64,000 nucleotides of DNA from Desulfatiglandales bacterium (GTDB taxonomy: Bacteria; Desulfobacterota; DSM-4660; Desulfatiglandales; Desulfatiglandaceae): positions 1,024,001-1,088,000 of the forward strand of contig OY759599.1 in NCBI GenBank assembly GCA_963662465.1, written 5' to 3'. The position numbers and the translations under genes were made by a program. This document shows, one piece after another, positions 9,001 through 58,752 of the stretch (positions within the stretch are counted from its first letter, which is position 1; each line of letters opens with the position of its first letter). The notes under the pieces were generated by a model that worked only from the letters and a program-made list of their open reading frames with translations, did not search any database and was not told where the DNA came from.

Positions 9001-9760
9001 GCTGGTAACGCCGGCGGAGGACCTGGTTTATCTTCGGAACCCGGAATCCTTCACCGGAACCCTGGTATTGTTTCCCCCGGGGTTTGCCGGGGCGGAGGTC
9101 TATTTTCAACTGATGGAAAAGTTGCATCCCGATATTCGGGTCATCGGGTTCAACAATCACTTCCTGAACAATCCCGCCGCCGATTCCGACGACGTGGCGG
9201 TTATCTTGAAGCGGTATATGGACCGCCTTCGATCCGAATTCGTGTGGGATGACGGGAAACCCGTTTGCCTGGGAGGCTGGTCCGTCGGGGGGAATACCAT
9301 TGTCTCCATGTTGAACCTGCTTGGAGGGTGCCCTGTCAAGCAACTGTTCCTGTTTGATGCCATCCTTTTTGAAGAAGGCGTGATGACATTCAGCAACAGC
9401 AGTCGCGAAGCCGGCTTAGACGACCCGGAGAACCACTTCCTGGCCGGTCTCAAAGAAGCCGGACTTTCCCGTGAAAGGATCGAATCCATCGTAAATCGGG
9501 TGGAAACATTTGCAACGTCCCTGGATTACCGGAAACAATCCACCCCCGCCGTCCTGTTCAAAGCCGGGTTGGAGGATTTGGGCGTCAGCGTCACGGATGC
9601 ATACTCCGGGTGGCGGAAATACTTGAGCCGGCTGGAGAAAATCGATATTGAAACGGTAAATCACTTTACCATTTTGAGCCGACCGGATTCCCTGGATATG
9701 ATCGCTCAGGAGATCAATCATGCATTTTGCAGAAGGGAGGGCAGTCTGGATATGGCATAA
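2..9760 (+). CDS. Non-ribosomal peptide synthetase, 5'-truncated by the window: A-(N-methyltransferase)-T, C-A-T, C-A-T, TE
   Basis: Three A domains (YTSGSTGxPKG, YGPT/SE, LYKTGDL). SAM motif EIGCGSG inserted in the C-terminal part of A1. T-domain serines GGNSL/GGHSL/GGNSL, C motifs HHVILDG and HHIISDGWS, TE GWSVGG. Confidence 0.97.
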   Translation: MSLDGGYRTEIEKADTDNPVYINKPTDLAYVIYTSGSTGRPKGVMIEHRTLINLVYANRKLLRIDPETRVLQFASPAFDASVWEIFPALAFGAPLFIVDDATRKSSEALSGYLRDNRVSLATLPPAYLPLMPEMDLPHLKTLIVAGDVCGPHLFELWGKNRRMINAYGPTESTVCATLHEFESGDSHVNIGGPIPNVKVYILDGSLRPVPVGTEGELYIGGECLARGYFNRPELTAERFIPNPFAGGEDKANSRLYKTGDLALWLPRGEIEFVGRNDFQVKIRGFRIELGEIENRLTKFPKIEQCVVTLHETTGNKDLCAYYVQKIPEADSDREGMGVAEWEKLYEDVYMREDSNEINTFDIEGWNSAFTGKPIPENEMREWVDTTVERIFEYQPERIFEIGCGSGLLMYPLLPFCTHYTGIDFSNEVIGRHQAAFQKLGIQNAAVATARADGIRQSGIIHPGEADTVIINSVIQYFPNVAYLESVIEDSLDLVESGRIFIGDVKDYRLIAEFHWTLIEHQMARRGTVAFGDELQNAVAASMKNEKELLVAPEYFIELCRKYPKITGIELLPKRGRSLHEMNCYRYDVVLKVNAPGEKLDLPWRDIADLKREIAGDCECFAIADYPNVRVLDVCGSPAALRKTGDASASKEADDAGTKYLGVEDLHVLAGKNGYALYVALSAAKAAYDLVFFRAPVTRAAVANALSERFLSRTTDPGIERYNVPATVSQDRISPVKLRNFLAEDLPDYMIPAFFVELESMPLNTSGKIDLKALPHPGSALSAGDEYVPARNETEKLISGIWCDLLGLPRIGVKDSFFNVGGNSLKVIQLSMKITAKTGKTLSARTIFINDTVEKQARILDEMETKRVDGIGRAEGKDDYPIINAQARMVLVSRIDPENTAYNVPLFYKTKDRIDPNRLRRALNEIVRTQESLRTFFIEKDDDIRQKIIDHADFEIALEERTIPASAVDATLTDFVRPFILDRAPLWRVGLFRVENEACNYLLFDFHHVILDGLSVGLFLRYLQDAYKGLELPEPAAQSKDYAAFQIKFRDSETYRQQAAYWKAEFAGEVPLLELPTDKPRPLEKSYRGSGLSVEVPTPVREGLKKLERETGATPFMIMFSVFNILLKKYTGQNDLVVGVPSFGRKHEDILFTIGMFVGTLPIRSQIPEAATALDYILALKQKVVDAVSNEDYPLEELVASLDMDRQSGRNPLFDVMFALWEGSDLTLDLNGLTLTKVREEIRTEKFDLTAYVFEDDDRSEVFFTYATDLFDRRTIERFSRHYLNILSTVVADPNVEIDRIGILSPSEYFRIMKEWNRTEAPYPGKTLHELFEEQVRRTPEKTALVFVGEKMTYRELDHRANRVAHSIRRAYRKRFERELPDDEMIGICIDRSFEMIIGVLAILKAGSGYVPLDMADPAERMTFKVEDCGCRVVLTVSGLEDKFHFFTDRGNVLIPMDKIGDPWEKTVVVRPEAGSTAENLAYAIYTSGSTGKPKGIILEHKTITNLVSFQINQTHIPFDGRVLQYTNLTFDVSLQEIFTTLLAGGTLHLIRKELRRDIGGLLDHMRENEIEVLFCPPALLNLIFTTPELENNFPRSVKHIIAAGEQLIVNKGLKRFLRENRAFLHNHYGPSETHVVTALTIGPDDPHIPDVPSIGKPISNTCAYILDPGMMPVPVGVPGELYLGGAGLARGYLRRPELTAERFIENPFADHADLKTKRKPRLYKTGDLVKWLHDGNIVFLGRNDFQVKIRGFRVELGEIESRLNDHPGIAQCIVTATEKDHVNSICAYYTINPAAGGNRPTRAELREYLDDLLPDYMVPAFLIPLDEMPLNANGKINRKALPPPDRAPMADTYVPPASETEKCLAEIWGEVLKIDQIGINDNFFDLGGHSLNATLVVSRIHKRLHVDCTIRALFDCKTISKLAAHIDSKQSEGVTPGIEVDKIDRTKPLPLSSAQERLWFLDRYQGGNSAHYNMPIAFRVKGPLDVPALEKAFNLMIGRHESLRTVFRETENGEPYQEILPKGMETEISLRVEAAAESALPEILTHEAHYGFDLANEQLFRVRLWRITGTGDHILLINQHHIISDGWSIGILCAELAEWYGHISNGHAVERVAPEYQYADYALWQKKHLESEGVRKGLQYWKGRLSGVEDLNLPTDRHRPPVFSHRGSHLKFSLDTGLTKRLRAFAGETDATLYMTLLCGFYILLSRYTHQDDLVIGTPVANRHHAQFEDIMGFFVNTLALRINGKDLSVRKLAEQVRKTSLAAFQHQDVPLDKILDELEIERDQSKNPLFQTLFALQNASEVGNLPLPGLNVCPVDIDCGVSKLDLSLMMMESGDRMTGFLEFCTDLFNPSTMERFIRHFQVILFELTKHAERKISELKMLPVEAYDRMIYLWNDTDVDYGDDVTIQALFEKVAAENPDSTAVVFEGDRLSYRELNERANQVARIIREKYRAVWNEDITGDTLIGLYMERGIDMITGILGILKAGAAYVPFDPVDSEDRLKFKIDDCECRMVLTCSSYSRELLFLAERDMLPLSLDAYRGEMEKAPKTNLPLMNKPTDLAYVIYTSGSTGRPKGVMIEHRTCTQMMLTQKKRCRVMEFSDALLFASISFDASVLEIFTALASGKALHIASEEVRRNPEALVELIQKNRIAVGTLPPAVLEVMPKTALSELKVLITAGDVCEPEVMNQWAHNRMLINGYGPTENTVCCTLHDFQPGDLNTNIGKPVENVKVYVLDSGLQPVPVGVFGELHIGGHNLARGYFKRPDLTAERFIPNPFASAEDRKNGENLRLYKTGDLVRFMDNGEIEFAGRNDFQVKIRGYRIELGEIEKRLAEHPAVRQCIVTARGKDADKAVCAYFTRRPRVSDNFRADPVGELRTFLASKLSDYMVPAFFMELDEMPLNTSGKIDRKRLPPPKADLVISGEHVAPRSETEKKIAAIWREIVRLDRIGVKDGFFAVGGNSLNAARLAAQLGRAFLRPVPVVTIFQKQTIEEQAAEIARLLVTPAEDLVYLRNPESFTGTLVLFPPGFAGAEVYFQLMEKLHPDIRVIGFNNHFLNNPAADSDDVAVILKRYMDRLRSEFVWDDGKPVCLGGWSVGGNTIVSMLNLLGGCPVKQLFLFDAILFEEGVMTFSNSSREAGLDDPENHFLAGLKEAGLSRERIESIVNRVETFATSLDYRKQSTPAVLFKAGLEDLGVSVTDAYSGWRKYLSRLEKIDIETVNHFTILSRPDSLDMIAQEINHAFCRREGSLDMA
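9621..9728 (+). repeat. 108-bp direct repeat, copy 1 (NRPS TE 3' end); copy 2 at 11381-11488
   Basis: Hand alignment gives 101/108 identical. Confidence 0.95.
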
Positions 9761-27364: not shown

Positions 27365-28699
27365 ATGTGTCAAAAAAAGCACATTATGCATATGCCATCA
27401 AACCAAAAAATTGATAAGGAGACTTTCCGGACGATTTTTATTGATCATTGGGAATCATTCAAAGAGCATCATCCAGGGTATGATAATTCGCAATATGAAG
27501 ATCCGGTTCAGAAAATGCTTGGTTGCGGCAAGGAAAGCGCCGGATATAGCGAGCACCGGTGTGTTTATTGCGGTGGTGATGTTCGCCGGATAGGTTTTAG
27601 TTGCAAGAGCTGTTTTTGTTTATCCTGCGCCAAGAAATATGTTGACGATTTTGTCAGTCAAGTGAGTAGGGTGCTTCATGGGGGCATGAATTACCGTCAC
27701 ATTGTTTTGACAATTCCCGAGCAACTGAGAATCGTTTTTTATAAGGCTCGAAATGATGGACGTTTGTTATCGGCTTTTATGAGATGCGGGTACGAATGTT
27801 TGGAGGATGTTGTCGGAACGGTTCTTCGGCGGAAACTGAAAATAGGAACGATCGTCGTTGTTCAAACGCATGGTCGATCCGGTCATTATAATCCGCATTT
27901 GCATATCATCATGACAAGCGGTGGGATAAATGAAGATCTGTGCGGTTGGTTTGATTTAAGGTTCTTCAAGTATGAGATTATACATAAGAAATGGCAGTAT
28001 CATCTATTCAGAATGCTCAAGTCCCATTTTAACAGCAGTGCGGTCGATAAACTTATTGATGAGCTGTGGAAAAAATACCCTAAAGGTTTGGTAGCCAATG
28101 TGAGCAAGGGTAATGTTCCTGAGACATGTGGGGGTCTGGCGCGATATTTGGCGAAATATGTTGCATCTCCTCCGATAGCTCTGAGACGGATAATCAGTTA
28201 TGATGGCCAATATGTTACCTATTGGTACAATGATCACATGACAAAATCCAGGAAGGTTGAAACCGTGGAAGTGGATGTTTTTATCGGTCGAATGGTTCAA
28301 CACATAATGCCCAAAGGGTTCCAGCGGGTTCGTTATTATGGGCTACAGGCTACGAAAACTTTTAAGAAATGGTCGGAAGTAATACGGAAAGGGATGAAGG
28401 CTTTGGGGCGTGGGATTAAAGGAACGTATCAAGTCGTAAAAGCGAAAAGATATCGAGAACGTTATAAGGAGATCAGCTCTCAAGATCCTTTTTTGTGTCG
28501 TTATTGTGGCCATGAAATGGTGCTATGGAAGATATGGCATCCAAAATATGGAGTTTTATATGACGAATATGAAAACATCAAAAACGACAGGTACGGCACG
28601 GTTACAGGACAAAATGACAGCGGGGGTGGAAGGCGAGGACTTCCCGTTCGGCCCTCCTCCGGAGGAATATCCTTACCGTTGTTCCCATTGCCGGCATGA
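27365..28699 (+). CDS. IS91-family transposase (Zn-binding domain plus Y2 HUH)
   Basis: SCKSCFCLSC, HIVLTIP, QTHG...NPHLHII (HUH), YLAKY (YxxxY), HIMPKGFQRVRYYG. Confidence 0.95.
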   Translation: MCQKKHIMHMPSNQKIDKETFRTIFIDHWESFKEHHPGYDNSQYEDPVQKMLGCGKESAGYSEHRCVYCGGDVRRIGFSCKSCFCLSCAKKYVDDFVSQVSRVLHGGMNYRHIVLTIPEQLRIVFYKARNDGRLLSAFMRCGYECLEDVVGTVLRRKLKIGTIVVVQTHGRSGHYNPHLHIIMTSGGINEDLCGWFDLRFFKYEIIHKKWQYHLFRMLKSHFNSSAVDKLIDELWKKYPKGLVANVSKGNVPETCGGLARYLAKYVASPPIALRRIISYDGQYVTYWYNDHMTKSRKVETVEVDVFIGRMVQHIMPKGFQRVRYYGLQATKTFKKWSEVIRKGMKALGRGIKGTYQVVKAKRYRERYKEISSQDPFLCRYCGHEMVLWKIWHPKYGVLYDEYENIKNDRYGTVTGQNDSGGGRRGLPVRPSSGGISLPLFPLPA

Positions 28700-38185: not shown

Positions 38186-39325
38186 CTATGTGACGAGGCG
38201 TAGCAGTTGATCTGCTGTGAGGGCCAGGATTCCGAACATCAAGTGGGCCATCACTTTGACATGCCCTCGCACACGAACATTTTTGCCCTCGAATTCATCT
38301 TTCAGTCGACCGTTCACCCTTTCAACATTGGAACGTTCGTTGTAACGACGGTCCTCGGGCATCTCAAAGTTAATAACTTTGAGCCGTTTGGCTTCCCACT
38401 TCAGCTCCTCCTTCAGTTTTGTGTTTCTGCGGGGATTGATGTCTATAATCGGCACGTGGCCGATGGACTGACTGTGTTCCCTAATGATGGGGGCGTCATA
38501 GGCCGAGTCCATTAGGTCATACAAGTTCGTGACCCTTGTCCGAGATATCTCTGCCAGGGGTAAGGCTACTTGACTGTCATGCAGTGAGGCTGATGTCAGA
38601 ATGCAACTGACAGGAATATGACCGTCGGCTGCGTCAATGTGCAACTTATAACCAATCCAACTCTCCATGTATCCTTTGCTATTCTTCTTGGTTCCGACAT
38701 CGCAGGCATTGGGAAGGTCGTCCAACATCTCTTCCAAACACATCTCTTTCTGTCGCTCAAGGCGCGTAGGCTCACTAATTTTCTCTTCTTCTTTCTTTGT
38801 TCGACCGCGCTTCTTCTTCGGCTTATTCTCAGCCACAATTTCTTTTTTCGCCGGCTTTTCACGGCCCTCTATCTCTGTCGAATCTCGTGAAATGTGCCCA
38901 ACTATCACATTGGACACCGTCCCATTTATCATCGCTTCATGCACTCGTGTGGGTAATTGGGTCATAGAAAACTCGGCAAATGCCCTTGAAAAGGTCGATT
39001 CACTGGGAATATCCCGACCCTTTTCCCATCCGCAGATTCGCAAAAGCTTCTGGTCGCTTGACAATCTATCCAGCAAATATCGGGTTGTCGGCATATTGTA
39101 TACGGCCTTTGCTACAAAAGCCCGAGCTATAGCTGCCCGTTCTTTACGATTCCGCCCAGGCAATCCGCTCATACACGGGACAAATTCTTCTATCCTTATA
39201 AGTTCCAATATGCCGACAAGTAAACGCTGTTTTGCACTTAACTCCCCAACTATGTCTTCGATCCACGGAAAAAGGTCCATCTGCACTCGATACCAATATT
39301 GCGAAATATTCTCCAAAAAACCCAT
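38186..39325 (-). CDS. DDE transposase
   Basis: PSESTFSRAF, RDST, WIGYKLH, MDSAYD, YNERSNVERVNGRLK; GGAGG RBS before ATG 39325. Confidence 0.93.
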   Translation of the reverse strand: MGFLENISQYWYRVQMDLFPWIEDIVGELSAKQRLLVGILELIRIEEFVPCMSGLPGRNRKERAAIARAFVAKAVYNMPTTRYLLDRLSSDQKLLRICGWEKGRDIPSESTFSRAFAEFSMTQLPTRVHEAMINGTVSNVIVGHISRDSTEIEGREKPAKKEIVAENKPKKKRGRTKKEEEKISEPTRLERQKEMCLEEMLDDLPNACDVGTKKNSKGYMESWIGYKLHIDAADGHIPVSCILTSASLHDSQVALPLAEISRTRVTNLYDLMDSAYDAPIIREHSQSIGHVPIIDINPRRNTKLKEELKWEAKRLKVINFEMPEDRRYNERSNVERVNGRLKDEFEGKNVRVRGHVKVMAHLMFGILALTADQLLRLVT

Positions 39326-39410
39326 ATTCGAGCGACCTCCGATCCAAAACACCTTAACTTCCGAAACAGATGTAACTACACACAATTATTACGCTAAGTC
39401 AATAAAATAT

Positions 39411-44121: not shown

Positions 44122-44320
44122 AACACAACGTCAACTTAACCCCTTCATAATATTATAATTTTAATGGATATTTTTTCTGCCGGTTTTGATGTGTAGCAAT
44201 AATGTTTATGAGCATCCCCTTTCCCGGCGGGTTTAAGCCTTTCTTTCCTCTATATCTATAACTCAAAATAAATGTGTGATTTCGCATAGTTACTTAACCC
44301 TGTCTGATTCTCCTGATTTT

Positions 44321-44337
44321 CCGGCATTACCATTGCA
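44321..44337 (+). promoter_or_regulatory. Putative sigma-54 (-24/-12) promoter for the gcvH-like/hdr/nuo operon
   Basis: CCGGCATTACCATTGCA = GG-N10-GC with GGCA and TTGCA context. Confidence 0.65.
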
Positions 44338-44485: not shown

Positions 44486-45808
44486 ATGAGACCAGATAAT
44501 TACTCCGACGGAAACAACATTGAAAAGGTGGCAGGGTTCCAGGTCCTTGAAAACCCATGCGTTTGGATGCGAGCGGGCGTGGTCAATTTCCGCATCTGCG
44601 AAAACCGTTACGACTGTGTCAACTGTGATTTTGATCGTAGCATGAGAAGGGCCATGACGGCGCAAGCGCCCCCGAAAGGGCGTGCGGCGCAGTTGGGCTG
44701 GGCCCGTGAGATGCGTCTAAAATATACGGGCGTCTTTAAGCCGTGTCGCTATTTTCTGACGGGAAAGCTGGGTCCGCCGGGACGATGCGAAAGGGATTAT
44801 GACTGTGATGGTTGCCCTATTGATATGATGTTGGGCTACCAACCCTTAACAACGGCCATTACCGAAGCGGAAAGCGCCCTGAAAGTCGAAGTAAGGCCCG
44901 AAATCCGGAATTCAGAACATTCCGGAAAGGAATGCATTTGGATGCGGGCAGGCGTGGTCAATTTTCACCTGTGCGAAAGCGATTACGATTGTTACCATTG
45001 CCTGTTCGATAGAAATATGCGCGAGGCCATGACCGCCCAATCGCCTTCTCAGGTCGAGGCAACATCATTATCTTGGGAAGATCGAATACAAAGCAGATTT
45101 GAAACCCTTGGCAACGAGTGCATTTACTTCATGGCCGGCCGAATTGATACACCAAAGGTTTGCCTTCAAAATTATGCATGTTTCTCTTGTCCGGTTCACC
45201 AAAAGCTGGCCGACCCAAACCGTGTCGCACCGATCCCCTTACACCCACCAAGCGTCCAAATGTCTTCCGGGTTCAGAGTCGCCGATGGTTATTATTATCA
45301 TTACGGCCACAGCTGGGTGCATGTCATTCACGGGGGATGCGTACGGATTGGGATCGATGATTTTATGGCAAAAGTATTCGGTCGGGCAAAACGAATTGAT
45401 TTGCCGCCAAATGACACGCCATTAAAACAGGGACACGTGGGATGGGTGTTGGCCCGAAACGGCCACAGGGCGCCCGTTCAATCACCCCTTTCAGGAAAGG
45501 TTCTGGCGGTTAATCGAAAAGTCCTCGATGATCCCGGTCAAATTCATGAAGATCCCTATGAAAACGGCTGGTTGTTCCACCTGGAACCTTCATTCCTGAG
45601 GCAGGAGTCTCAGATGCTCTATTCTGGAAAAACAAGCCGGCAATGGATTGAAAGAGAACATCAGGGGCTTCTCCAATTGATGGGACCCGAATATGAACGA
45701 TTGGCAGCCACGGGGGCGGAAACCATCGGAGACCTGTTTGGCGCCTGCCCCGAGTTGGGATGGACCCGGCTGGTGCAGCAATTTTTACGCACCGGCGAAA
45801 AAAAATAA
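44486..45808 (+). CDS. Cys-rich repeat protein with C-terminal GcvH-like domain lacking the lipoyl lysine
   Basis: Two CxWMRAGVVNFxxCExxYDCxxCxFD repeats, each followed by a second four-Cys block; then YYHYGHSW..RIGIDDF..SPLSGKVLAVN..DPYENGWL. Confidence 0.88.
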   Translation: MRPDNYSDGNNIEKVAGFQVLENPCVWMRAGVVNFRICENRYDCVNCDFDRSMRRAMTAQAPPKGRAAQLGWAREMRLKYTGVFKPCRYFLTGKLGPPGRCERDYDCDGCPIDMMLGYQPLTTAITEAESALKVEVRPEIRNSEHSGKECIWMRAGVVNFHLCESDYDCYHCLFDRNMREAMTAQSPSQVEATSLSWEDRIQSRFETLGNECIYFMAGRIDTPKVCLQNYACFSCPVHQKLADPNRVAPIPLHPPSVQMSSGFRVADGYYYHYGHSWVHVIHGGCVRIGIDDFMAKVFGRAKRIDLPPNDTPLKQGHVGWVLARNGHRAPVQSPLSGKVLAVNRKVLDDPGQIHEDPYENGWLFHLEPSFLRQESQMLYSGKTSRQWIEREHQGLLQLMGPEYERLAATGAETIGDLFGACPELGWTRLVQQFLRTGEKK

Positions 45809-45862
45809 CATCAACGGAAATTGCCAAAATTTTAAACCTGCAATGACATAGGGGAGAACGCC

Positions 45863-46258
45863 ATGAGAAGAGAAACCACCGGTTCCGTTCTGGTTGTGGG
45901 GGGAGGGATTGCCGGGATGCAGTCCGCTCTGGATCTTGCCAACTCAGGATATTACGTATACCTATTAGAAAAGAGCCCATCCATCGGGGGGGCCATGGCG
46001 CAGCTGGACAAGACCTTTCCCACCAACGACTGCGCCATGTGAATCATTTCTCCTAAACTGGTCGAGGTCGGCCGGCACTTGAACATTGAACTGATCACCT
46101 ATTCGGATCTGGAATCCGTGGAAGGATCCGCTGGGAATTTCAAAGTAAAAATCAAAAAACGCGCTCGAAGCATTGACATGAGCCGCTGCACCGGATGCGG
46201 CAGTTGCATTGAGCATTGTCCGGTAACCCATCAGGCAGTTAACTTCGGCCAGGCATAA
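45863..46258 (+). CDS. Short HdrA N-terminal module, putative selenoprotein (131 aa, Sec60); missing from the ORF track
   Basis: [17 protein letters not shown]...[15 protein letters not shown](46040-46042)[12 protein letters not shown]...[17 protein letters not shown]-like hairpin follows. Confidence 0.88.
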
Positions 46259-46333
46259 CCGCATTAAACGGCGAACGACGCACCAAAAATGGCTTAAACC
46301 GCGGCTTGCCGCTTTCATGGAGTTTTTTCTAAA

Positions 46334-46855
46334 ATGAATGAAACCCATCCCATTCTAAATGATGCTCCTTTGGCCATCGATTATCTGGCCTTGGACCGGC
46401 TGGTGGAGGAGAGGTTTAACAACGACAAAGAAAACCTGATTATGATCCTTCAGGCCATTCAGGCCCAATACAATTATCTTCCACAACCTACACTGGCTTA
46501 TCTTTCCGAAAAAATAGAAATTCCCCTGAGCCGTATTTACGGAGTGGCCACCTTTTACAGCACCTTCAGCCTTGAACCCCGAGGGAAAAACATCATCAGC
46601 ATCTGCCTGGGCACCGCCTGTCATGTGCGGGGCGCCGGGAGGGTGCTGGAACGGATTGAAGACATCTTGCACGTGGAAAACGGAGAAACCACCGAGGATG
46701 GGTTGTTTACCCTGGAATCAGTTCGGTGCATCGGTTGTTGCAGTCTGGGCCCGGTGGTCAAAATAAATGAAGATGTGCATGGCCGAATCGCTTCGGAGAA
46801 CCTGACGCAGATTCTGAATCATTACGGGGAATCCAAAATAAAACAGGGCGGATGA
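46334..46855 (+). CDS. NuoE-like [2Fe-2S] subunit
   Basis: GVATFY, CLGTACH, CIGCC. Confidence 0.93.
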   Translation: MNETHPILNDAPLAIDYLALDRLVEERFNNDKENLIMILQAIQAQYNYLPQPTLAYLSEKIEIPLSRIYGVATFYSTFSLEPRGKNIISICLGTACHVRGAGRVLERIEDILHVENGETTEDGLFTLESVRCIGCCSLGPVVKINEDVHGRIASENLTQILNHYGESKIKQGG

Positions 46856-46856
46856 C

Positions 46857-48758
46857 ATGAAGATTCAGCAAATAACGGATATAGATGAAATAGGCCGTCA
46901 TCAAAAGGAAATTCTTTATTTTCCCGAAGTCCTCACCGTCAATATGGGAATGGCGTCCTGCGGCATTGCGGCCGGCGCCGATAAAACCTTTGGGCGGGCC
47001 GCAGCCGAATTCGGTGAAAGCAAGGATATTCAGCTTCGAAAAACCGGTTGTCTGGGGTTTTGCGAAATGGAGCCCCTGGTGGAAATCTTTAAAAAAGGCG
47101 CTCCCAGGATTGTTTATAAAAACGTCACACAAGATAAAATCGCGGATATCATCAGCGGGTATTCGGAGGGCCGGTTTGACAAAAAACAGATACTGGGACA
47201 GATGCGCGATCCCCGGTCCCTGCTGGAAACGGAAGACCCGAATCCCCTTGAAGGCGTTGAACCCGTTCCGGATATCCCCATTCTGGAAGACATTCCGTTT
47301 TATAAACAGCAGATCAAGATCGCTTTACGCAACTGCGGTTACATTGACCCCGAGCGTATTGAAGAGTACATGGCCAAAGGCGGCTACAAGGCGTTTCTTT
47401 TGGCCCTCAAAGCCGATGCGCCTAAAAGCATTATCGCCGCCATCAAGGACTCGGGGCTGCGGGGGCGGGGGGGCGGCGGTTTTCCAACGGGGGCCAAATG
47501 GGAGAGTTGCGCGGCCCATGAGGGAGAACGCTTTATCATCTGCAACGCCGACGAGGGAGACCCCGGAGCCTACATGGATCGCAGCATCCTGGAAGGGGAT
47601 CCCCATTCCATTATTGAAGGCATGCTCATCGCGGGTCTGGCCATCGGCGCCAACAGCGGATTTCTCTATGTGCGAAACGAATATCCCCTGGCCGTGAAAC
47701 GGCTGGTCACGGCAATACGCCAGGCCACGGGTTACGGTCTTTTGGGGCACAACATCGCGGGTTCCAATTTTTCCTTTGAGATAAAAATATCCACCGGCGC
47801 GGGGGCCTTTGTTTGTGGTGAATCAACGGCGCTGATGGCTTCCCTTGAAGGGGAAGTGGGTCGTCCCAGGGCCAAATACATCCATACGGCGGAAAAAGGA
47901 TTTCGGGATAGCCCCTCCAACCTGAACAACGTGGAAACCTATGCCAATGTGCCGGCCATCCTATTAAAAGGCGCCGAATGGTTCTCCCAATTGGGAACCG
48001 ACAATAGCAAAGGAACAAAAGTATTCAGCCTGGTGGGCAAAATCAAAAATACGGGTCTCGTGGAAGTGCCCATGGGGACCAGCCTGCGCAGCATTATCTA
48101 TGACATGGGGGGCGGAATTCCCAAAAAGAAAGTCTTCAAGGCCGTGCAGACCGGCGGCCCTTCGGGGGGCTGTATTCCGGACCAATTTTTGGATCTGGGG
48201 GTTGACTTTGATGCCTTGAAAAAGGTGGGGTCCATCATGGGGTCCGGCGGCATGATCGTCATGGACCAGGATACCTGCATGGTGGACGTGGCCCGGTATT
48301 TCCTGGATTTTCTCAAGGAGGAATCCTGTGGCCAGTGCAACCCCTGCCGGGAAGGGATTAAACGGATGCTGGAAGTGCTGACTCGCATCTGCGATGGAGA
48401 AGGCCGGGAAGGAGACATTGAACTGCTGCAAGAGTTGGGCGGCATGGTCCGGAAGTTTTCTCTCTGCGGCCTGGGCACTTCGGCCCCCAATCCGGTGTTG
48501 ACCACCATCCGTTATTTCAGGGACGAGTATGAGGCCCATATTCGGGACAAAAAATGTCCGGCCGGGGTTTGCAAAACCCTGTTTCATTACGAAATTGACG
48601 AAAACGCCTGCACCGGTTGCCGGCTGTGCGCCCTCAAATGCCCCCAGGAAGCCATTACCGGAGAAAAGAAAAAACCCCATCAGCTGGCGCAGGAAAAATG
48701 CATCAAGTGCGGCATCTGTTATGAGGTGTGCAAATTTGGCGCGATTGTAATTGCTTAG
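46857..48758 (+). CDS. NuoF/HydB-like NADH-binding FMN subunit with C-terminal 2x[4Fe-4S]
   Basis: GLRGRGGGGFPTG, CNADEGDPG, GAGAFVCGE, ESCGQCNPCREG, two CxxCxxCxxxC motifs. Confidence 0.95.
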   Translation: MKIQQITDIDEIGRHQKEILYFPEVLTVNMGMASCGIAAGADKTFGRAAAEFGESKDIQLRKTGCLGFCEMEPLVEIFKKGAPRIVYKNVTQDKIADIISGYSEGRFDKKQILGQMRDPRSLLETEDPNPLEGVEPVPDIPILEDIPFYKQQIKIALRNCGYIDPERIEEYMAKGGYKAFLLALKADAPKSIIAAIKDSGLRGRGGGGFPTGAKWESCAAHEGERFIICNADEGDPGAYMDRSILEGDPHSIIEGMLIAGLAIGANSGFLYVRNEYPLAVKRLVTAIRQATGYGLLGHNIAGSNFSFEIKISTGAGAFVCGESTALMASLEGEVGRPRAKYIHTAEKGFRDSPSNLNNVETYANVPAILLKGAEWFSQLGTDNSKGTKVFSLVGKIKNTGLVEVPMGTSLRSIIYDMGGGIPKKKVFKAVQTGGPSGGCIPDQFLDLGVDFDALKKVGSIMGSGGMIVMDQDTCMVDVARYFLDFLKEESCGQCNPCREGIKRMLEVLTRICDGEGREGDIELLQELGGMVRKFSLCGLGTSAPNPVLTTIRYFRDEYEAHIRDKKCPAGVCKTLFHYEIDENACTGCRLCALKCPQEAITGEKKKPHQLAQEKCIKCGICYEVCKFGAIVIA

Positions 48759-48760
48759 GA

Positions 48761-48866
48761 GCTGTTAGCCGTTAGCTATTAGCAGCCCACTAGTCCAGAG
48801 TGAACGCCATAGGGCCTAAGGGCTAATGCTGACAGCTAAACCTAATTTCTAACAGCTAACAGCTAA
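48761..48866. repeat. Inverted arrays of degenerate heptamers (GCTGTTA / TAACAGC)
   Basis: gctgttagccgttagctattagc ... ctaacagctaacagctaa. Confidence 0.7.
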
Positions 48867-48877
48867 GAGGACGAGCC

Positions 48878-51800
48878 ATGGTAAAATTTACGATCAATGA
48901 CAAGGAAGTGTATGGAGAGGAAGGCCAATATATCCTCGACGTGGCCAAAAAGGCCGGCATTGAAATTCCCACCCTCTGCCATCATGAAGCCCTGGAACCC
49001 GCGGGCATGTGTAGATTATGCACCGTTGAACTCTTTGACGGGCGCAGAACCAAATTTGTGACCGCTTGCAACTATCCCATCTGGGAAGGGATGGAAGTTT
49101 TTACGGATACCGAATCCATCATCGAGGGCCGTAAACTCATTGTGGAGCTACTGCTGGCCCGGTGTCCCGATGTGCCGGTGATTAAAGACCTGGCCCAAAA
49201 ATACGGCATTTCAAAGCCCCGGTTTTTGGAAGAGGGTGATGATTGCATTCTCTGCGGCCTTTGTGTTCGCATGTGCGAAAAGGTGGGCAACAGTGCCATC
49301 AGCTTCACGGGCCGCGGGGTAGAGATGAAGGTGGATACGCCTTTTTCCGTGCAGACCGAATTCTGTATGGGGTGTGGGGCGTGTGCCTCGGTCTGTCCCA
49401 CCGGGCATATCAAACTTGAAGACATTGCCAGACATCAGGTGAAACCCATTCCATCGGAATACGACATGGGCCTGAAAGGCCGCAAGCCCATTTACGTGCC
49501 CTATGCCCAGGCGATCCCCAATACGCCCGTTATTGACCGGGACATGTGCATGCATTTCAAGACCGGCGCTTGCCAGGTATGTACGGAATTCTGCGGGGTA
49601 GATGCCATTGATCATATGCAGCAGGACGAAACCATTGAACTGGAAGTGGGTTCCATTATTCTGGCCCCCGGATTTCAACCTTTTGACCCCTCCAGGCTGA
49701 CCCATTACGGATACGGTCGGCATTCCAATGTGATGACATCAATGGAGCTTGAGCGCATTCTGTCCGCCTCCGGACCCACCCTGGGTCATCTCACGCGGCC
49801 TTCCGATGGGGGGGAACCCAAGAAGATTGCCTGGATCCAGTGCGTGGGAAGCCGGGAAGAGAACCGCTGCAATCACGGATATTGTTCTTCCGTATGTTGC
49901 ATGTACGCCATTAAGGAGGCGGTCATCGCCAAGGAGCATGCGGCCGGCGATCTCGATTGCGCTATTTTTTTCATGGACATGCGCACGGGGGAAAAAGAGT
50001 TTGACCGGTATTTCATACGCGCACGGGATGAAATGGGTGTACGGTTCATCCGTTCGCGCATTCATAGCATTGACAAGAAGCCCAATGGTTCTGAAGACCT
50101 TCAAATTACCTATGTGTCGGAAGACGGGCATCGCAAGATGGAATTGTTTGATATGGCCGTGCTTTCCATTGGCCTTGAACCTTCGGAAAGTCTTCCTGAA
50201 TTGGCGTCCACATTGCAAATTGAGCTGGATGCGGACGGCTTTGTGAAAACCCAGGGAGAGATGCCCACCGAAACCACCCGCCGGGGCGTTTTTTCCTGCG
50301 GCGCCGCCTGTGGTCCCAAAGATATCCCCCAGTCCGTGGTAGATGCCTCAGCATCGGCCGCGGCTTCTGCCGTGCTTCTGGTCGATTCTCGAAATACACG
50401 GGTGCGGAAAAAGGAATATCCTGAAGAGAGGCTCATAACCGCGGAAAAGCCTCGCATCGGCGTGTTTGTCTGCCATTGCGGCATCAATATCAGCAGTGTG
50501 GTGGATGTTCCCGCCGTGCGGGATTATGCAAAAACCCTTCCCGGCGTAGTCCATGTGGCGGACAATCTATTTACCTGCAGTCAGGATACACAGCTTTCCA
50601 TACAGAAGACGATTCGAGAAAAGGGCCTGAACCGGGTGGTGGCGGCGGCATGCACGCCCCGCACCCACGAACCCCTGTTTCAAGAGACCCTTCGGGAGGC
50701 CGGGTTGAACCCCTATCTCTTTGAATTTGCAAATATTCGAGATCAGGATGCCTGGGTGCATAAAAATGATCCCGAGGCGGCCACGGAAAAGGCCATGGAC
50801 CTGGTGCGTATGGCGGTCTCAAAGGCGGCATTGCTGGAACCCATCCAACCGCTGGCCCTGGAAGTTTGTCCGACGGCCCTCGTGGTGGGCGGCGGCATCG
50901 CCGGCATGAATGCGGCACTCAACTTGGGGGATCAAGGATTTTACACCTACCTGGTGGAGAAAAATGAGCAGCTTGGGGGCCAGGCGCGAAACCTCTCTCA
51001 AACCTGGAAGATTGCTGATGCACAAAAATACCTGGCCCAATTATGCCGTAAGGTTTTAAACCAAGCCAACATCGAAGTGTTGACCGGCGCTGAGATTAAA
51101 AATGTTATGGGCTTTGTGGGGAATTTCAGGACCACCCTCAACCATAAAGGAGGTGAAAAGACATTAAATCATGGCGTCGTCGTTCTGGCCACCGGAGGCC
51201 ATGCCTTTGAGACGCGGGAATACCTTCGCGGCCAAAGCGATCGGGTCACCTGCTGGCACGAATTGACGGATCTCTTTACAAAGGAGCCCGAGCGCCTGGA
51301 AAAGGCCGATACGGTTGCGTTCATCCAGTGTGTGGGATCCCGTGAGCCAAAACGTCCTTACTGCTCTAAAATCTGTTGCACCGCCTCGATTCTGCAGGCC
51401 ATTGGGTTAAAAAAACAGAAACCGAGTTTGAATGTATATATCCTGTATCGGGAAATTCGAACCCCCGGCCAACGGGAACACCTGTATCGGGAAGCCCGTT
51501 CCCTGGGCGTGGTGTTCATCCGCTATACGCTGGATCATAAACCGGTGGTAACACAGGTTTATGATGGCTATGAAGAAAAATTGAATATTCTGGTGAAAGA
51601 TCGCATCCTGGGGTTGCCCCTTAGCATCAGGGCGGATTATGTGAATCTGGCGACCGCCATTTTGCCCGAAGCGCACCAGGCATTGGCACAATTTCTCAAA
51701 GTGCCGTTAAATGAAGACGGCTTTTTTATGGAGGCCCACGTAAAACTGCGGCCGGTTGATTTTTCTTCCGACGGCGTATTTGTCTGCGGTCTGGCCCATT

Positions 51801-52726
51801 ATCCAAAATCCCTCGAAGAATCCATCTCCCAGGCCCAGGCCGCCGCCATGCGGGCCGCCGGCGTGTTGGCCCGAAAAACCATTTCCGTGGAACCCATCAT
51901 CAGCGTGGTGGATCAGACCCGATGCGTGGGTTGCGGCCTGTGTGAAGCAACTTGCGCCTTCGGCGCTATTCGGCTGGTCGCGATTTCGGAAAAAGGATAC
52001 CGGGCCGAAAATAATCCGGCCCTGTGTAAAGGATGTGGGCTTTGCGCGGCATCGTGCCCTCAAAAGGCCATCGACATGATGCATTATCGCGACCGGCAAT
52101 TCCACGCGGCCATTGATGCGGGGGGCCTTACCGCACGCCGGTTCAAAACAAAACGCGCGCAACAAGCCGAAATCGACGCTTTCAAAGTCGTTTCAGGATA
52201 TCAATTGGCCGATGATCGCTACTATCATCGGGGCCACAGCTGGGTTCGCCTTGAGCGCGGCGGCCGCGTCAAAGTGGGAATGGATGATTTCATGGCCAGA
52301 ACATTTGGACAGGCTAAAAAATTCCTGTTGCCTGAAAAAGGCGCAATTCTGGGGCAAGACCGGAAGGGTTTTGCCTTCAGGCGTAACGGCCATTCAGCAA
52401 CAGTTTTATCTCCCGTGACGGGAAAAGTTTTTTATGTGAACCGAAAAGCCCTGGAAAACCCTGAACTCATACACCTGGATCCTTACGGCGAAGGCTGGCT
52501 TTTAATTCTGGACCCCCTGATTCTGAGAATGGATTTGAGCCATCTCTACAAAAAAGAGCAGAGTATCAATTGGCTGGAAGACGAAAACCGAAAACTCCTG
52601 GGACTTCTGGGTCCGGAGTATGAAAAACTGGCAGCCACAGGTGCCGCCCCGCTACCGGATTTGTTTGGAAACTTTCCCGAAATCGGATGGGATAATCTGG
52701 TCAAGACGTTTTTGCACAGCAGCTAG
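48878..52726 (+). CDS. Fusion: NuoG-like Fe-S N-terminus, HdrA lacking its own N-terminus, C-terminal GcvH-like domain
   Basis: [25 protein letters not shown]; two HdrA-type blocks ([28 protein letters not shown]); GcvH-like [26 protein letters not shown] from about 52181. Confidence 0.9.
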
Positions 52727-52751: not shown

Positions 52752-53519
52752 ATGAACGACACATTCGAACCAAAGATACTGGCCTTTCTATGTAACTGGT
52801 GCGCCTATGCGGGGGCCGATCTCGCCGGCGTATCACGGCTCCAATATCCCTCCGGTATACGGGTCATCCGCACCATGTGCTCGGGCCGGGTGGACCCACT
52901 CTTTGTGCTGAAGGGGTTAAGTTCCGGTTTTGACAGCGTTCTGGTCAGCGGTTGACACATCGGCGAATGCCATTACCTGTATGGTAATGTTCATCTGGCC
53001 AGACACCTGGAAGTGGTTGAATATCTCCTGGATTTATCGGGTATTGGACGTGAACGCATGGGGCTGAAGTGGATCAGCGCCGCGGAAGGAAAAGAGTTTG
53101 CCGAGTATGTCAAGGAATTCAGCGATAAAACCAGAAGCCTGGGGCCCTTTAACGCGGACAGGTATGGCCTTGAACTGGCCGCCTGTGAACGGGCCCTGGA
53201 CTCGCCGAGGTTGCGATGGCTCATGGGAATGGAAATCCAGCTGACTGAAAAGGAAAATGTTTTTCACGAAAAAATTGAAAAAGCCCGTTATACCGAGCTG
53301 CTTCAAAAGGCGGGTGTTTCAGAATATGAAAAGGCATTAATTGGGGAATCCCTCAAAGACGGCCCTCTTTCGGTCAGGGAGATCGCCTTAAAAACCGGTC
53401 TTTCGGTCCATTGCGTGTCGTCCCGGCTGGGTGAACTGGAGCGTCTCCATCAGGCGGAACTGGGTCAATATCAGGCGTATGTCCCCCTGTTTGCCAATTC
53501 GGCCGTAACGATGACCTGA
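52752..53519 (+). CDS. mvhD: MvhD/FlpD-like [2Fe-2S] putative selenoprotein (Sec68) with C-terminal winged-HTH-like extension
   Basis: [33 protein letters not shown](52953-52955)-HIGECHY, in frame with ORF 53013-53519 (WISAAEG); hairpin CATTACC-TGTAT-GGTAATG downstream. Confidence 0.9.
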
Positions 53520-53597: not shown

Positions 53598-56500
53598 ATG
53601 CCCCTTAAAATAGATCATGAAAAAGTGGGCGCCGTTATGGTGATCGGCGCCGGCATCGCCGGCATGCAGGCGGCCCTGGATCTGGCGGGCGCGGGTTACT
53701 ATGTTCACCTGTTGGATCGTTCGCCCAGCATTGGCGGCATGATGGCCCAGTTGGACAAGACCTTCCCCACCAATGACTGCGCCATGTGAATTATTTCTCC
53801 CAAACTGGTCGAGGTCGGCCGGCATTTGAATATCAATATCATTACGAATTCGGAAGTGGAAGCCCTGGAAGGGGTCCCGGGGAATTTTTCAGTCAAGCTC
53901 AAGAATTATCCACGCGCCATTGATCCTGACAAATGCACCGGGTGCGGACAATGCAGCCAGGCATGTCCGGTGACGGCCATCAATGAATTTAATTGCGGCC
54001 TGGATCTCAGAGCCGCCACCTACATTCAATACGCCCAGGCCGTGCCCCTCGCCTACGCCATTGACCGGGAGGTCTGTATCGGATGCGGATTGTGCCAGAA
54101 AATTTGTCTGGCCGGGGCTGTTTGTTATGATGAGCAACCCAGAAAAACCCAACTGGCGGTGGGGGCGTTGGTGCTGGCCATGGGGATGGAAGTTTTTGAC
54201 GCCGCAACCCTTGAGGCATACAGCTATTCAAAATCCCCCAATATTGTAACCAGCCTTGAGTTTGAACGTATTTTAAGCGCCTCCGGGCCATATGCGGGGC
54301 ATCTCACCCGGCCCTATGACCGGGAAGAACCGCAAAAAATTGCATGGTTGCAATGTGTCGGGTCCCGCAGCCAGAATGGGGGCCATCCCTATTGTTCCTC
54401 GGTCTGCTGCATGTACGCCATTAAGGAAGCGGTTATCTCTAAGGAGCATGCCCGCGGCGATCTCGATGCCGCCATATTTTTTATGGATATGCGCACCTGC
54501 GGGAAGGATTTTGAAGAATACTACCACCGCGCCGAATATGAACACGGCGTCCGGTTTATCCGGTCACGGGTTCACAGCGTGAATCCGGTGGGAGACGGGG
54601 ACCTGGAAATTGATTATGTGGATGAAAAAGGGCGCTGCAGAACGGAAATTTTCAACCTGGTGGTATTGTCCGTTGGATTTCAGGTGGGAATGGAAACCGT
54701 CCAACTGGCCCATCGTCTGGGCGTTGAACTGGATCACTACCATTTTGTCCGGACGGGCAGTTTTCAGCCGGTGAGTACGAATCGTCCCGGGGTTTATGTT
54801 TGCGGTACCCTTCAGAGTCCCAAGGATATCCCCCAGTCGGTCATGGAAGCCTCCGCCGCCGCCGCGGCCGCAAGCACCCTCTTGAGCGACAGACGCTGGT
54901 CCCAAACCCGGACCCAGACCATGCCCCCGGAAACCAACGTTTTCGGCGAACCACCCCGCATCGGCGTTTTTGTATGTCAGTGCGGCATTAATATCGGTGG
55001 CATTGTCAACATCCCCGAAGTCGTGGCATACGCTCGATCACTCCCCCATGTGGTGTACACGGAAGACAACCTCTACACCTGTTCCCAGGATACACAGGTT
55101 AAAATGTCACAGGTCATTCGTGAGCAGGGCATCAACCGGGTGGTGGTAGCCGCTTGTACGCCCAAAACCCATGAACCCCTGTTCCAGGAAACATTGCAAA
55201 ACGCGGGACTTAACAAGTACCTGTTTGAGATGGCCAACATTCGGAACCAGGATTCCTGGGTACACAGCCGTCATCCGAATCTTGCCACTGAAAAAGCCAA
55301 GGATCTCATCCGAATGGCCGTTGCCAAGGCAGCCCTCCTTGAAGCCCTGCCCGAGATCGAACTGGATCTGAATCCGGTATCCCTGGTTATCGGCGGCGGC
55401 GTGGCGGGTATGACCGCGGCGAAAAATCTGGCTGAACAGGGATATGTCGTCCATCTGGTGGAGCGGTCCCATATCCTTGGCGGCCAGGCCAACAACCTTT
55501 TCAAAACATGGCAGGGGGAAGACATTCAGGGATTTCTCCAAACCCTCATTCAAAGTGTTGAAAACAATCCCCTGATTCATTTGCACCGGTCCACGGAGTT
55601 AACCCGGGTCGATGGCTTTGTGGGCAATTTTCAATCGGTGTTGACCCCTTCCCATGGGGAGGCGATCCACCTGGACCATGGCATCGCCATTGTTGCCACG
55701 GGGGGGAAAGAGTTTAAGCCCTCAAGCTATCTTTATGGGCAGGATCCACGGGTGCTCACCCAGCTGGAACTGGATAGAAAATTCATCGAGAAGGATCTGG
55801 ATCCGGCAAAAATCGCCACGGCCGTCTTTGTGCAATGCGTTGGCAGCCGCGAACCGGAGCGCCCTTATTGCAGTCGCGTGTGCTGCACCCACACACTGGG
55901 AAACGCCCTGGAGCTGAAACAACGCAATCCTCAGATGAGCATTTTCGTATTGTATCGGGATCTCAGGACCTACGGGAAAAGAGAAGATCTTTATCTCCGC
56001 GCCCGAAAAGAAGGCATTGTTTTCATACGATACGATCTGGAAGATAAACCGACGGTTGCATCCGGGGAAAAGACCCTCGAAATTATTGCGCCGGATCCCA
56101 TTCTGGAAAAACCCATCAGAATTGAAACAGATTTGCTGATCCTGGCAACGGCCATAGTGCCGGAGCCGGAAGGGGCATTGGCCAATTTTTTCAAAATTCC
56201 CGTCAACGATCAGGGATTCTTTATTGAAGCCCATGCCAAACTGCGACCGGTTGATTTTGCCACCGAAGGGGTTTTCCTCTGCGGCCTGGCCCATTACCCC
56301 AAATCACTGGATGAAAGCATTGCGCAAGCCCTGGCCGCCGCCTCCCGGGCATCCGGGCTGCTGGCTTCGGGCAAGGTCTCCATCAGCGGCACGGTCGCCC
56401 AGGTCAATCCTCGATGGTGCTCCCGATGTGGTGTTTGCGAAAACATCTGCCCCTTCAACGCCCCTTCCCTTGCCGAAGACGGACCGGCTGAAATCAATGC

Positions 56501-56609
56501 CGTACTTTGCAAGGGGTGCGGCTTGTGCATCGCATCGTGTCGCAGCGGCGCCATTCACCTGAAAGGATTTGATGAATCGCAGATTATGGCCATGATCGGT
56601 CAGGTTTAA
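53598..56609 (+). CDS. hdrA: Heterodisulfide reductase subunit A-like flavoprotein with two FAD modules, putative selenoprotein (1003 aa, Sec64)
   Basis: ORFs 53598-53789 and 53826-56609 share a frame and are joined through TGA 53787-53789 in NDCAM-U-IISPK; two GxGxxG and two CVGSR blocks; ferredoxin motifs. Confidence 0.93.
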
Positions 56610-57450: not shown

Positions 57451-58752
57451 TCAACTTTTCAATTTCTTTATCATTGAACGCAGTTCTTCGATCTCAGCCT
57501 GTTGTTTCTTAAGTTGTTTCTCAAATTGATGTTGTTGCTCCTTCATGAGGTTTTTCTGGTCCTGATTTTCAGTCTTCAACTCCTTAACAGCTTCAACGAG
57601 CACGGCCGTGAGTTTGGTATAGGACACGCCCTTGAACCCATTCGCATCCTCGGAAACCAGTTCCGGTATGGTTTTTTCCACATCTTGAGCTACAAGCCCG
57701 ATATGCTTTCCATTTTCAAAACCTGCGTTCGGAAATGCATTTTTTTTCCATTCGTAGGTAACTCCCTGAAGGCTGGCCACCTTTTCCAGGGAAGATTTCA
57801 GGGGCTGAATATTTTGTTTCCATCTCTGGTCTGAACTGCTGTAGCTGGCGGTTGCTCTGAAGGCACCGTTTATCACTACGTTTCGAGTTTCAAAGTCACC
57901 CCAGATGAGCGGTTCGGCATCATTGGAATTATGGATATAGAGTTTGTTGCTCCCGGTTTCACTATATCCGGCGCTTTTCCCCAAGAAAACGTTTCCCGAA
58001 CCCGTTGCATTACTATATCCGGCAGAGTGTCCGATAAATGTATTATAGTCGCCACTGGTATGTTGGTGCCCATTCGAAGTACCCAGAAAAACATTGCCAC
58101 TTGCATTGGCATTTTGGTATCCTGAATGGTATCCGAGAAAAACATTCGAACTCCCTAGTAGGTTGCCTTCTCCCGCGGATTTGCCAAGAAAGACATTATA
58201 AGTGCCTCCTGTACTATCATAGCCCGCGTAAGCACCCACAAATGTGTTGTTGTTGGATGTGTTGTCATGTCCTGCATTAGACCCTAGAAAAGTATTAAAG
58301 TCACCGCTTACATTGGTTCGCCCCGAAAGTCGTCCCAAAAAGGTGTTGTCATATCCTGTGGTGTTGTGATTACCTGAACTTGAACCCAGAAAGGTATTGT
58401 TGTTTCCTTGATTTAAATATCCGGCATAATACCCCATTGCAATGACACTGCTTCCTGTGTTGCCACGCCCAGCATAGTATCCCATAAAGCAGTTGGCCGA
58501 GGTCGTATTGTTTCTTCCTGAATCTGCGCCGTAAAAAGAGTTTTGGCTTCCAGTACTGCTGGCACCTGCATTCATACCGTAGTAAGTGTTGCTGTCGATT
58601 TCCGAACCACGAATTTCAATTGTAGCGTCCTCTATGGTTTTTGCAGCGTTAGTTGTTCCAACGGGTTTGGTTTCTGTTTCTTCCTCCGCAAAGAGATTTC
58701 CAGCACAGAACAGAAATGCCAAAAGGATTGAAACGAGGATAGATTTTTTCAT
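57451..58752 (-). CDS. Exported fibre/adhesin-like protein: 14-residue NTFLG repeats, peptidase S74-type intramolecular chaperone, coiled coil
   Basis: Signal peptide; AGGAGG RBS; GxxNTFLGxxAG repeats; SSDQRWKQNI...IGLVAQDVE..PELV...LVEAVKEL. Confidence 0.88.
   Translation of the reverse strand: MKKSILVSILLAFLFCAGNLFAEEETETKPVGTTNAAKTIEDATIEIRGSEIDSNTYYGMNAGASSTGSQNSFYGADSGRNNTTSANCFMGYYAGRGNTGSSVIAMGYYAGYLNQGNNNTFLGSSSGNHNTTGYDNTFLGRLSGRTNVSGDFNTFLGSNAGHDNTSNNNTFVGAYAGYDSTGGTYNVFLGKSAGEGNLLGSSNVFLGYHSGYQNANASGNVFLGTSNGHQHTSGDYNTFIGHSAGYSNATGSGNVFLGKSAGYSETGSNKLYIHNSNDAEPLIWGDFETRNVVINGAFRATASYSSSDQRWKQNIQPLKSSLEKVASLQGVTYEWKKNAFPNAGFENGKHIGLVAQDVEKTIPELVSEDANGFKGVSYTKLTAVLVEAVKELKTENQDQKNLMKEQQHQFEKQLKKQQAEIEELRSMIKKLKS

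Follow-up and report, generated by a model that had tools for sequence, protein, structure and literature searches.

Why would a redox operon of the sulfate-reducer type encode two domains that resemble the H protein of the glycine cleavage system, both of them without the lysine to which lipoate is attached? The question is raised by a stretch of 64,000 nucleotides (hereafter the window) from a Desulfatiglandales bacterium (GenBank assembly GCA_963662465.1, contig OY759599.1, positions 1,024,001 to 1,088,000 of the forward strand). One such domain ends a Cys-rich protein (gene A), and the other ends a protein that contains a large part of HdrA (gene B). We call GL domain the Lys-less H-protein-fold domain together with its C-terminal tail. 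The original prediction, made on the letters of the window, held that these are not glycine-cleavage H proteins, and that they may pair with each other and anchor the Cys-rich protein to HdrA, or else bind a different ligand. We report here that GL domains form a real, widespread and mis-annotated domain family, associated with an apparently undescribed regulatory cassette that comprises an archaemetzincin, a sigma54 response regulator and a histidine kinase. It is this genomic context of the GL domain that is new. Together with a sigma54 promoter motif and with fusions of GL domains to receivers, the cassette points to a regulatory role rather than to plain docking.

H-protein domains without the lipoyl lysine

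Domain A occupies positions 45254-45805 of the window, at the end of an open reading frame (ORF) of 440 residues (44486-45808), and domain B positions 52178-52723, at the end of an ORF of 1282 residues (48878-52726). Their RNGH hairpins begin at 45455 (residue 324) and 52382 (residue 1169), and their tail motifs are at 45701 and 52628. In H proteins, the lysine of the ESVKA motif is the lipoate-bearing residue. Upon phmmer alignment of domain A with solved H proteins (three alignments), no gap was found over the hairpin and a glycine stood opposite this lysine. Both domains also passed the Pfam GCV_H profile (69.5 bits for A and 60.0 bits for B, cut-off 22.2), a check that the original prediction had proposed, and its claim that glycine replaces the lysine in both domains was confirmed. 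In the AlphaFold model of the gene A product, the GL domain has a predicted local distance difference test score (pLDDT) of 80-98 per block, and strands 318-324 and 327-332 are joined by a turn of N325-G326, a residue pair that is common in hairpin turns. This model matched H proteins in Foldseek at ranks 1-19 (target template modelling score 0.80-0.91), so that GL domains are predicted to have the H-protein fold. The equivalence of G326 with the lysine comes from the sequence alignment and the predicted strands, as the Foldseek output gave no residue-level alignment.

GL domains resemble GcvH by this predicted fold, with 23-29% identity to its structures (Pfam PF01597; PDB 1dxm, 1onl, 3ab9), and differ from it by the missing lysine, a tail of about 50 residues, added Cys modules or fusions, and the absence of gcvP or ligase genes nearby. 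For the window, this absence had been claimed from the start: tblastn with GcvP1, GcvP2, LplA and LipS2 gave no match there, which upholds the claim for gcvP and the ligase, while for gcvT it goes no further than the observation that no GcvT-like ORF stood out, no homology search having been made. Domains A and B scored below the cut-offs of NCBIfam GcvH PRK01202 (66 and 54 bits against 117) and TIGR00527 (50 and 50 bits against 116). Gene A was likewise below those of GcvH_rel_desulf NF045810 (26.9 against 150 bits) and not_gcvH TIGR03077 (51.1 against 144 bits); for gene B, neither of these two models was among the 25 matches listed. The LbpA proteins of sHdr sulfur oxidation are H-like proteins encoded beside Hdr-like genes, often two per cluster; in the parts of the sources that deal with them, their lipoyl lysine is strictly conserved and their clusters carry ligase and radical-SAM genes (PMC6067878; bioRxiv 10.64898/2026.10.01.755906), whereas GL domains have neither the lysine nor these genes, and travel with regulators. 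Judged by sequence, GL domains therefore belong neither to GcvH nor to LbpA, as the defining lysine is missing.

Domains A and B align without gaps over 181 residues at 50% identity (E 4e-66). This alignment takes in the tail, as expected from the shared tail reported in the original prediction. Compared with the closest relative (L004), the ratio of nonsynonymous to synonymous substitution rates was 0.17 for domain A and 0.145 for domain B, close to the values for HdrA (0.13) and NuoF (0.11); both domains are under purifying selection. They are sister groups in a quick tree (support 84, inside a clade of support 99), and thus likely arose by local duplication.

What the family conserves is, from its alignments, the loss of the lysine and not RNGH. 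In the top 120 of 313 homologues, the residue at the hairpin tip was G in 55, D in 28, N in 10, E in 9, S in 4, K in 4 and others in 10. RNGH itself, whose conservation in homologues was another proposed check, was found in 29 of these 120, in 4 of 15 HdrA fusions and, among distant representatives, in one of the best 150. These counts rule it out as a conserved ligand motif or a family signature, and with a tip so variable, the idea of a different ligand bound at RNGH did not hold as it was worded. A tip lysine was present in 6 of the 150 distant representatives, never in an E-x-x-K context (0/6), and the most Lys-rich column of the alignment (73/123 rows) is outside the hairpin, and domain B has Arg there. 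With the lysine gone here and in most relatives, the view that these are not glycine-cleavage H proteins stands.

The GL profile matched 69 of 301 Desulfobacterota genomes (E≤1e-40) and 42 of 301 Bacteroidota genomes (E≤1e-32), plus one Stahlbacteria record. At E≤1e-30, it matched 1,061 representatives at 50% identity, whose members were not individually checked. A tally of 119/151 genomes was set aside when the family was counted, since true GcvH may pass its threshold, and a search for related loci gave 20, mostly ordinary gcvH.

Regulators, promoters and fusions beside GL domains

The neighbourhood of GL genes was examined in GL-centred stretches of at most 20 kb, hand-picked for long contigs: 37 order-picked loci (three flanking extensions being left out), 40 phylum-picked loci and 20 loci from Bacteroidota. 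Related genomes among them are not independent. Archaemetzincin, sigma54 response regulator and histidine kinase were found together in 34/37 and 29/40 stretches (63/77), with profiles built from these same loci. With an independent NCBIfam model, archaemetzincin was detected in 65 of the 69 GL genomes of the Desulfobacterota set, versus 50 of the 232 others, and within 10 kb of a GL gene in 54/69. As a background, the source genome of the window was cut into 409 tiles of 20 kb, of which 2 contained an archaemetzincin, 45 a sigma54 regulator of this type and 107 one or more kinases. The HExxH motif of the archaemetzincins was intact in 54/54, and kinase, regulator and protease directly followed the operon in 5 of the 7 fetched relatives having it. 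The redox partner varied: HdrA was present in 26/37 and 16/40 stretches, and an NrfD/HmcC-like protein in 13/40 and in 19 of the 20 Bacteroidota loci.

The cassette kinases themselves fall into different types. Those of HdrA-type loci begin with a glycine-rich Rossmann-like domain without Pfam hit (e.g. L062:16276-16695), a possible nucleotide sensor for which no significant solved relative was found (best E 0.4), and those of Hmc-type loci carry a CxxCH motif in a membrane sensor.

The consensus of sigma54 -24/-12 promoters is GG-N10-GC. Of the 82 GL genes whose leader is free, 48 are preceded by a strict match, versus 4 of 355 other genes of the same loci; after base shuffling the mean was 0.4 and the maximum 3, and on the reverse strand the count was 1/82. 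The window has such a motif at 44323-44336 on the forward strand, 163 bases before gene A. A hexamer located 131 bases before its -24 element (44192-44197, same strand) is a candidate activator half-site. Of the 18 promoters in the window clade, 15 have it at -113 to -131, and 16 of 55 overall, against 4 of 526 promoter cores of the genome, that of the window included; it was picked by eye from the sequences later counted. Sites resembling those of integration host factor were found near the promoter in 24/55 cases and in the upstream control zone in 27/55, a comparison without position specificity. Two RNA runs had small shares (0.12 and 0.05), and their contigs, which are of relatives and mostly less than 90% alike, are uninformative on transcription.

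GL domains are also fused to a variety of partners. We found 15 clusters of HdrA-GL fusions and, besides these, a second lineage in which the architecture is HdrA-MvhD-molybdopterin-binding. A single clade of these fusions was rejected by the approximately unbiased test (p-AU 0.0003, on 60 of 123 rows; the group was set by length, and tested after inspection of the tree). In relatives of the window, HmcD-like membrane N-termini are joined to GL domains beside HmcB/HmcC-like genes, which recalls the Hmc complex (NCBIfam NF045712-NF045715); one of the four membrane-anchored GL proteins submitted matched HmcD, just under the cut-off (33.1 bits against 34), and the likeness does not extend to the window. 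In P0264, GL is joined to a cytochrome with an HmcD-like anchor, P0136 has two GL domains in tandem, and one protein combines a periplasmic-binding-protein domain with GL. Receiver-GL fusions were found in 9 of the 20 Bacteroidota loci, paired in 8 and directly behind the kinase. Both domains were confirmed by Pfam in 5/5 submitted proteins, and the phospho-Asp motif was present in 16/17. A further protein of 1391 residues, P0142, has three tandem H-like domains together with FAD-linked oxidase and CCG domains.

Possible roles of GL domains

In some lineages the fusion partner of a GL domain is a redox subunit, in others it is a phospho-receiver, and a kinase lies nearby either way. The simplest reading, and the one that we propose, is that GL domains act as non-lipoylated protein-interaction adaptors, coupling anaerobic redox complexes to two-component, sigma54-dependent control; we hold the chances of this proposal to be about even. 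The kinase and the sigma54 activator, here those of the trio encoded at G000:C1:5277780-5281560, would switch on the operon from the promoter at 44323. The gene A product, with its probable metal-binding Cys modules, would meet the GL domain on HdrA or on the regulator, and would then report or tune the state of the HdrA complex, while the archaemetzincin would likely provide a proteolytic reset. In this scheme we infer the binding, the partners, the metal content, the direction of the signal and the role of the protease. A comparable logic is known from HupUV-HupT-HupR/HoxBCJA and from PspA-PspF, where a kinase or a sigma54 activator receives feedback from a redox protein or from the first product of the operon. 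The likeness is one of logic, no more than an analogy.

Several observations weigh against the adaptor proposal. The first gene of a sigma54 operon lying beside regulators could be any regulated subunit, and all three cassette genes are missing from 6 of the 40 phylum-picked loci. The window is itself devoid of the regulator trio, which lies elsewhere in the genome. Since the cassette kinases have sensor domains of their own (PAS, GAF, HAMP), GL need not be the sensor. The nine receiver-GL loci have no sigma54 motif, and just one has an archaemetzincin. Finally, no receiver-GL fusion was seen among the Desulfobacterota loci, so that the argument from fusions stems from another phylum.

In a bolder form of the proposal, which we put forward tentatively, a lipoyl-carrier fold was recruited as a signalling domain that has so far gone unrecognised, and pairs of GL domains form a feedback link between electron-bifurcating or membrane redox complexes and two-component, sigma54-dependent control in at least three phyla, with the archaemetzincin as reset. 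One GL copy would sit on the complex, and the other would come with a new Cys metal module or with a phospho-receiver.

A purely structural function is a rather less probable explanation. GL would then be a docking or accessory domain that holds a Cys-rich metal or electron-transfer subunit on HdrA or on Hmc-like complexes, the regulators controlling transcription only. This would account for the repeated fusion of GL to redox subunits and for the presence of HdrA or NrfD in 26/37 and 29/40 stretches and of NrfD in 19/20. Paired GL genes and the tandem GL-GL protein fit it as well, but it leaves the receiver-GL fusions unexplained, and many GL genes are accompanied by regulators only, 11 of the 37 order-picked loci having neither HdrA nor NrfD. 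Moreover, in the passages available from its report, the solved class II benzoyl-CoA reductase complex is described with BamB-I only, and the string "lipo" does not occur (bioRxiv 10.64898/2026.04.10.717634). As to the pairing of A with B that docks the Cys-rich protein on HdrA, it is possible: GL genes are often paired, P0136 is a tandem, and domains A and B are paralogues that group as sisters. A complex prediction for domains A and B scored 0.00, which says nothing on binding since the controls did not fold.

It is unlikely that GL serves as a tag for maturation or turnover, with a tail loop recognised or cut by the archaemetzincin and the Cys-rich protein acting as a chaperone of Fe-S/flavin complexes or as their quality-control adaptor. 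The tight linkage to an archaemetzincin with intact HExxH speaks for it, and so does the occurrence of a similar tail motif, alone, in membrane proteins of 72-102 residues that adjoin GL genes (L151:7892-8197, L152:10995-11261, L153:8410-8658, L154:8778-8993, L156:4600-4872). Five of the six shown end in a T-x-x-D-G-G type motif like that of the GL tail, which suggests that this motif may be a docking or cleavage peptide by itself; two that were submitted had no Pfam hit. Yet the archaemetzincin is missing from the stretch in 8 of the 9 receiver-GL loci, the cleavage is hypothetical, and the tail fused to HdrA is not known to be processed.

Still more doubtful is a carrier of some other small ligand, metal or covalent group, held in a conserved His/Asp patch. 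Of 123 rows, 113-123 show the residues H1117, H1120, W1122, D1136, D1137 and F1138 and the Gly-Gly of the tail; for the whole conserved set, with W1271 and F1278 of the tail, the range is 111-123. The two His and the two Asp are those that could form such a patch, and an Arg two residues before the tip is found in 117/120 close homologues. This Arg drops to 90/123 rows in the wider set, however, and the tip varies; true H proteins share the second His and the first Asp, which may therefore be structural, and no modifying enzyme accompanies the cassette. Lastly, the Pfam match, the fold and the lipoylation genes of the genome would suit H proteins that are decayed or still lipoylated, but a Gly at the site, a constraint close to that on HdrA and NuoF, and a Lys-rich column off the hairpin make this very improbable.

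The operon, its genome and the family

In the operon of the window, all features are on the forward strand. Upstream of its GL domain, the gene A product has four C-x12/13-C-x5-C-x2-C units (44558-45190), whose 16 Cys are invariant in 22 aligned two-module homologues and probably bind metal. The model of the Cys module (pLDDT 80) had no Foldseek hit at E≤0.001 and matched none of 48,161 chains at Z≥2 with VIA-align, and scored 0.76 to unnamed clusters only in the structure Atlas, which does not show a new fold. Stand-alone ORFs of 75-142 residues that cluster with GL proteins lie beside GL genes in L065, L068, L071, L072, L076 and L131; the one from L131 consists of the Cys module only.

Gene A is followed by an N-terminal piece of HdrA of 131 residues (45863-46258), with an in-frame TGA at 46040-46042 that likely encodes selenocysteine, and the piece escapes plain ORF calling; the selenocysteine tRNA and selB are encoded in the genome. 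A NuoE-like (46334-46855) and a NuoF-like subunit (46857-48758) come next, and then gene B, with a NuoG-like Fe-S N-terminus, the rest of HdrA and domain B. In 7/7 fetched relatives with the pair formed by gene A and HdrA-GL (two of them near-identical), hdrA is contiguous through the TGA. Therefore, nuoE-nuoF-nuoG' was most likely inserted into hdrA (45863-48877) here and in L004. Further down are an MvhD/BamF-like protein of 255 residues (52752-53519; in-frame TGA at 52953-52955; FlpD 159 bits, weak HTH_24, E 0.0075) and a second HdrA (53598-56609; in-frame TGA at 53787-53789). With BamE/F/G/H/I of class II benzoyl-CoA reductase, as far as the available passages describe them (bioRxiv 10.64898/2026.04.10.717634), the operon shares a tandem-type HdrA, a long selenocysteine-bearing MvhD and NuoE/F/G-like parts; it differs by the split of hdrA by nuoEF, by the additional GL domain and by having no bamBC, bamD or hdrBC. 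Elsewhere, the window encodes a nonribosomal-peptide-synthetase-like protein of 3252 residues (2-9760), ORFs judged transposase-like by eye (27365-28699 and 38186-39385) and a repeat protein that includes a Peptidase_S74 domain (57451-58752).

Outside the window, the genome has a true gcvH-gcvP cluster, and, apart from it, a Lys-bearing H-like gene with lipoate-ligase-like and LipS2-like genes (L002:7126-9828; G000:C1:2.795 Mb). A near-identical second gcvH copy is followed by just a short gcvP fragment (G000:C1:4709812-4710681). A third GL paralogue (L001/L003, G000:C1:5046000-5082000) is divergent from protease, regulator and kinase genes, and precedes nuoEF-like genes, hdrCBA, metVF and a gene for BamB (1266 bits to 4z3w); on its other side are two CxxCxxCC-type genes. 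The orphan kinase-regulator-archaemetzincin trio mentioned above adjoins genes resembling an integrated element. It is intact and orthologous to the trio behind the operon in relatives, for whose genes its members are the best hits (regulator 70-75%, kinase 52-56% and protease 46-52% identical), and an RpoN-box protein is encoded in the genome.

In the openly accessible literature, as far as titles and starts of abstracts show, we found no description of a Lys-less H domain with these neighbours, of the family or of the cassette. GL proteins are labelled "glycine cleavage system H" or "lipoate-binding" in databases, and many proteins so labelled are probably mis-annotated. It is poorly understood how Hdr-type bifurcating complexes and Hmc-like membrane complexes are adjusted, in expression and in activity, to the redox state of anaerobes. 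The cassette offers parts that can be tested, from the promoter, the kinase and the activator to the protease and the adaptor domain, and if the proposed link is true, bacterial archaemetzincins would gain a physiological role.

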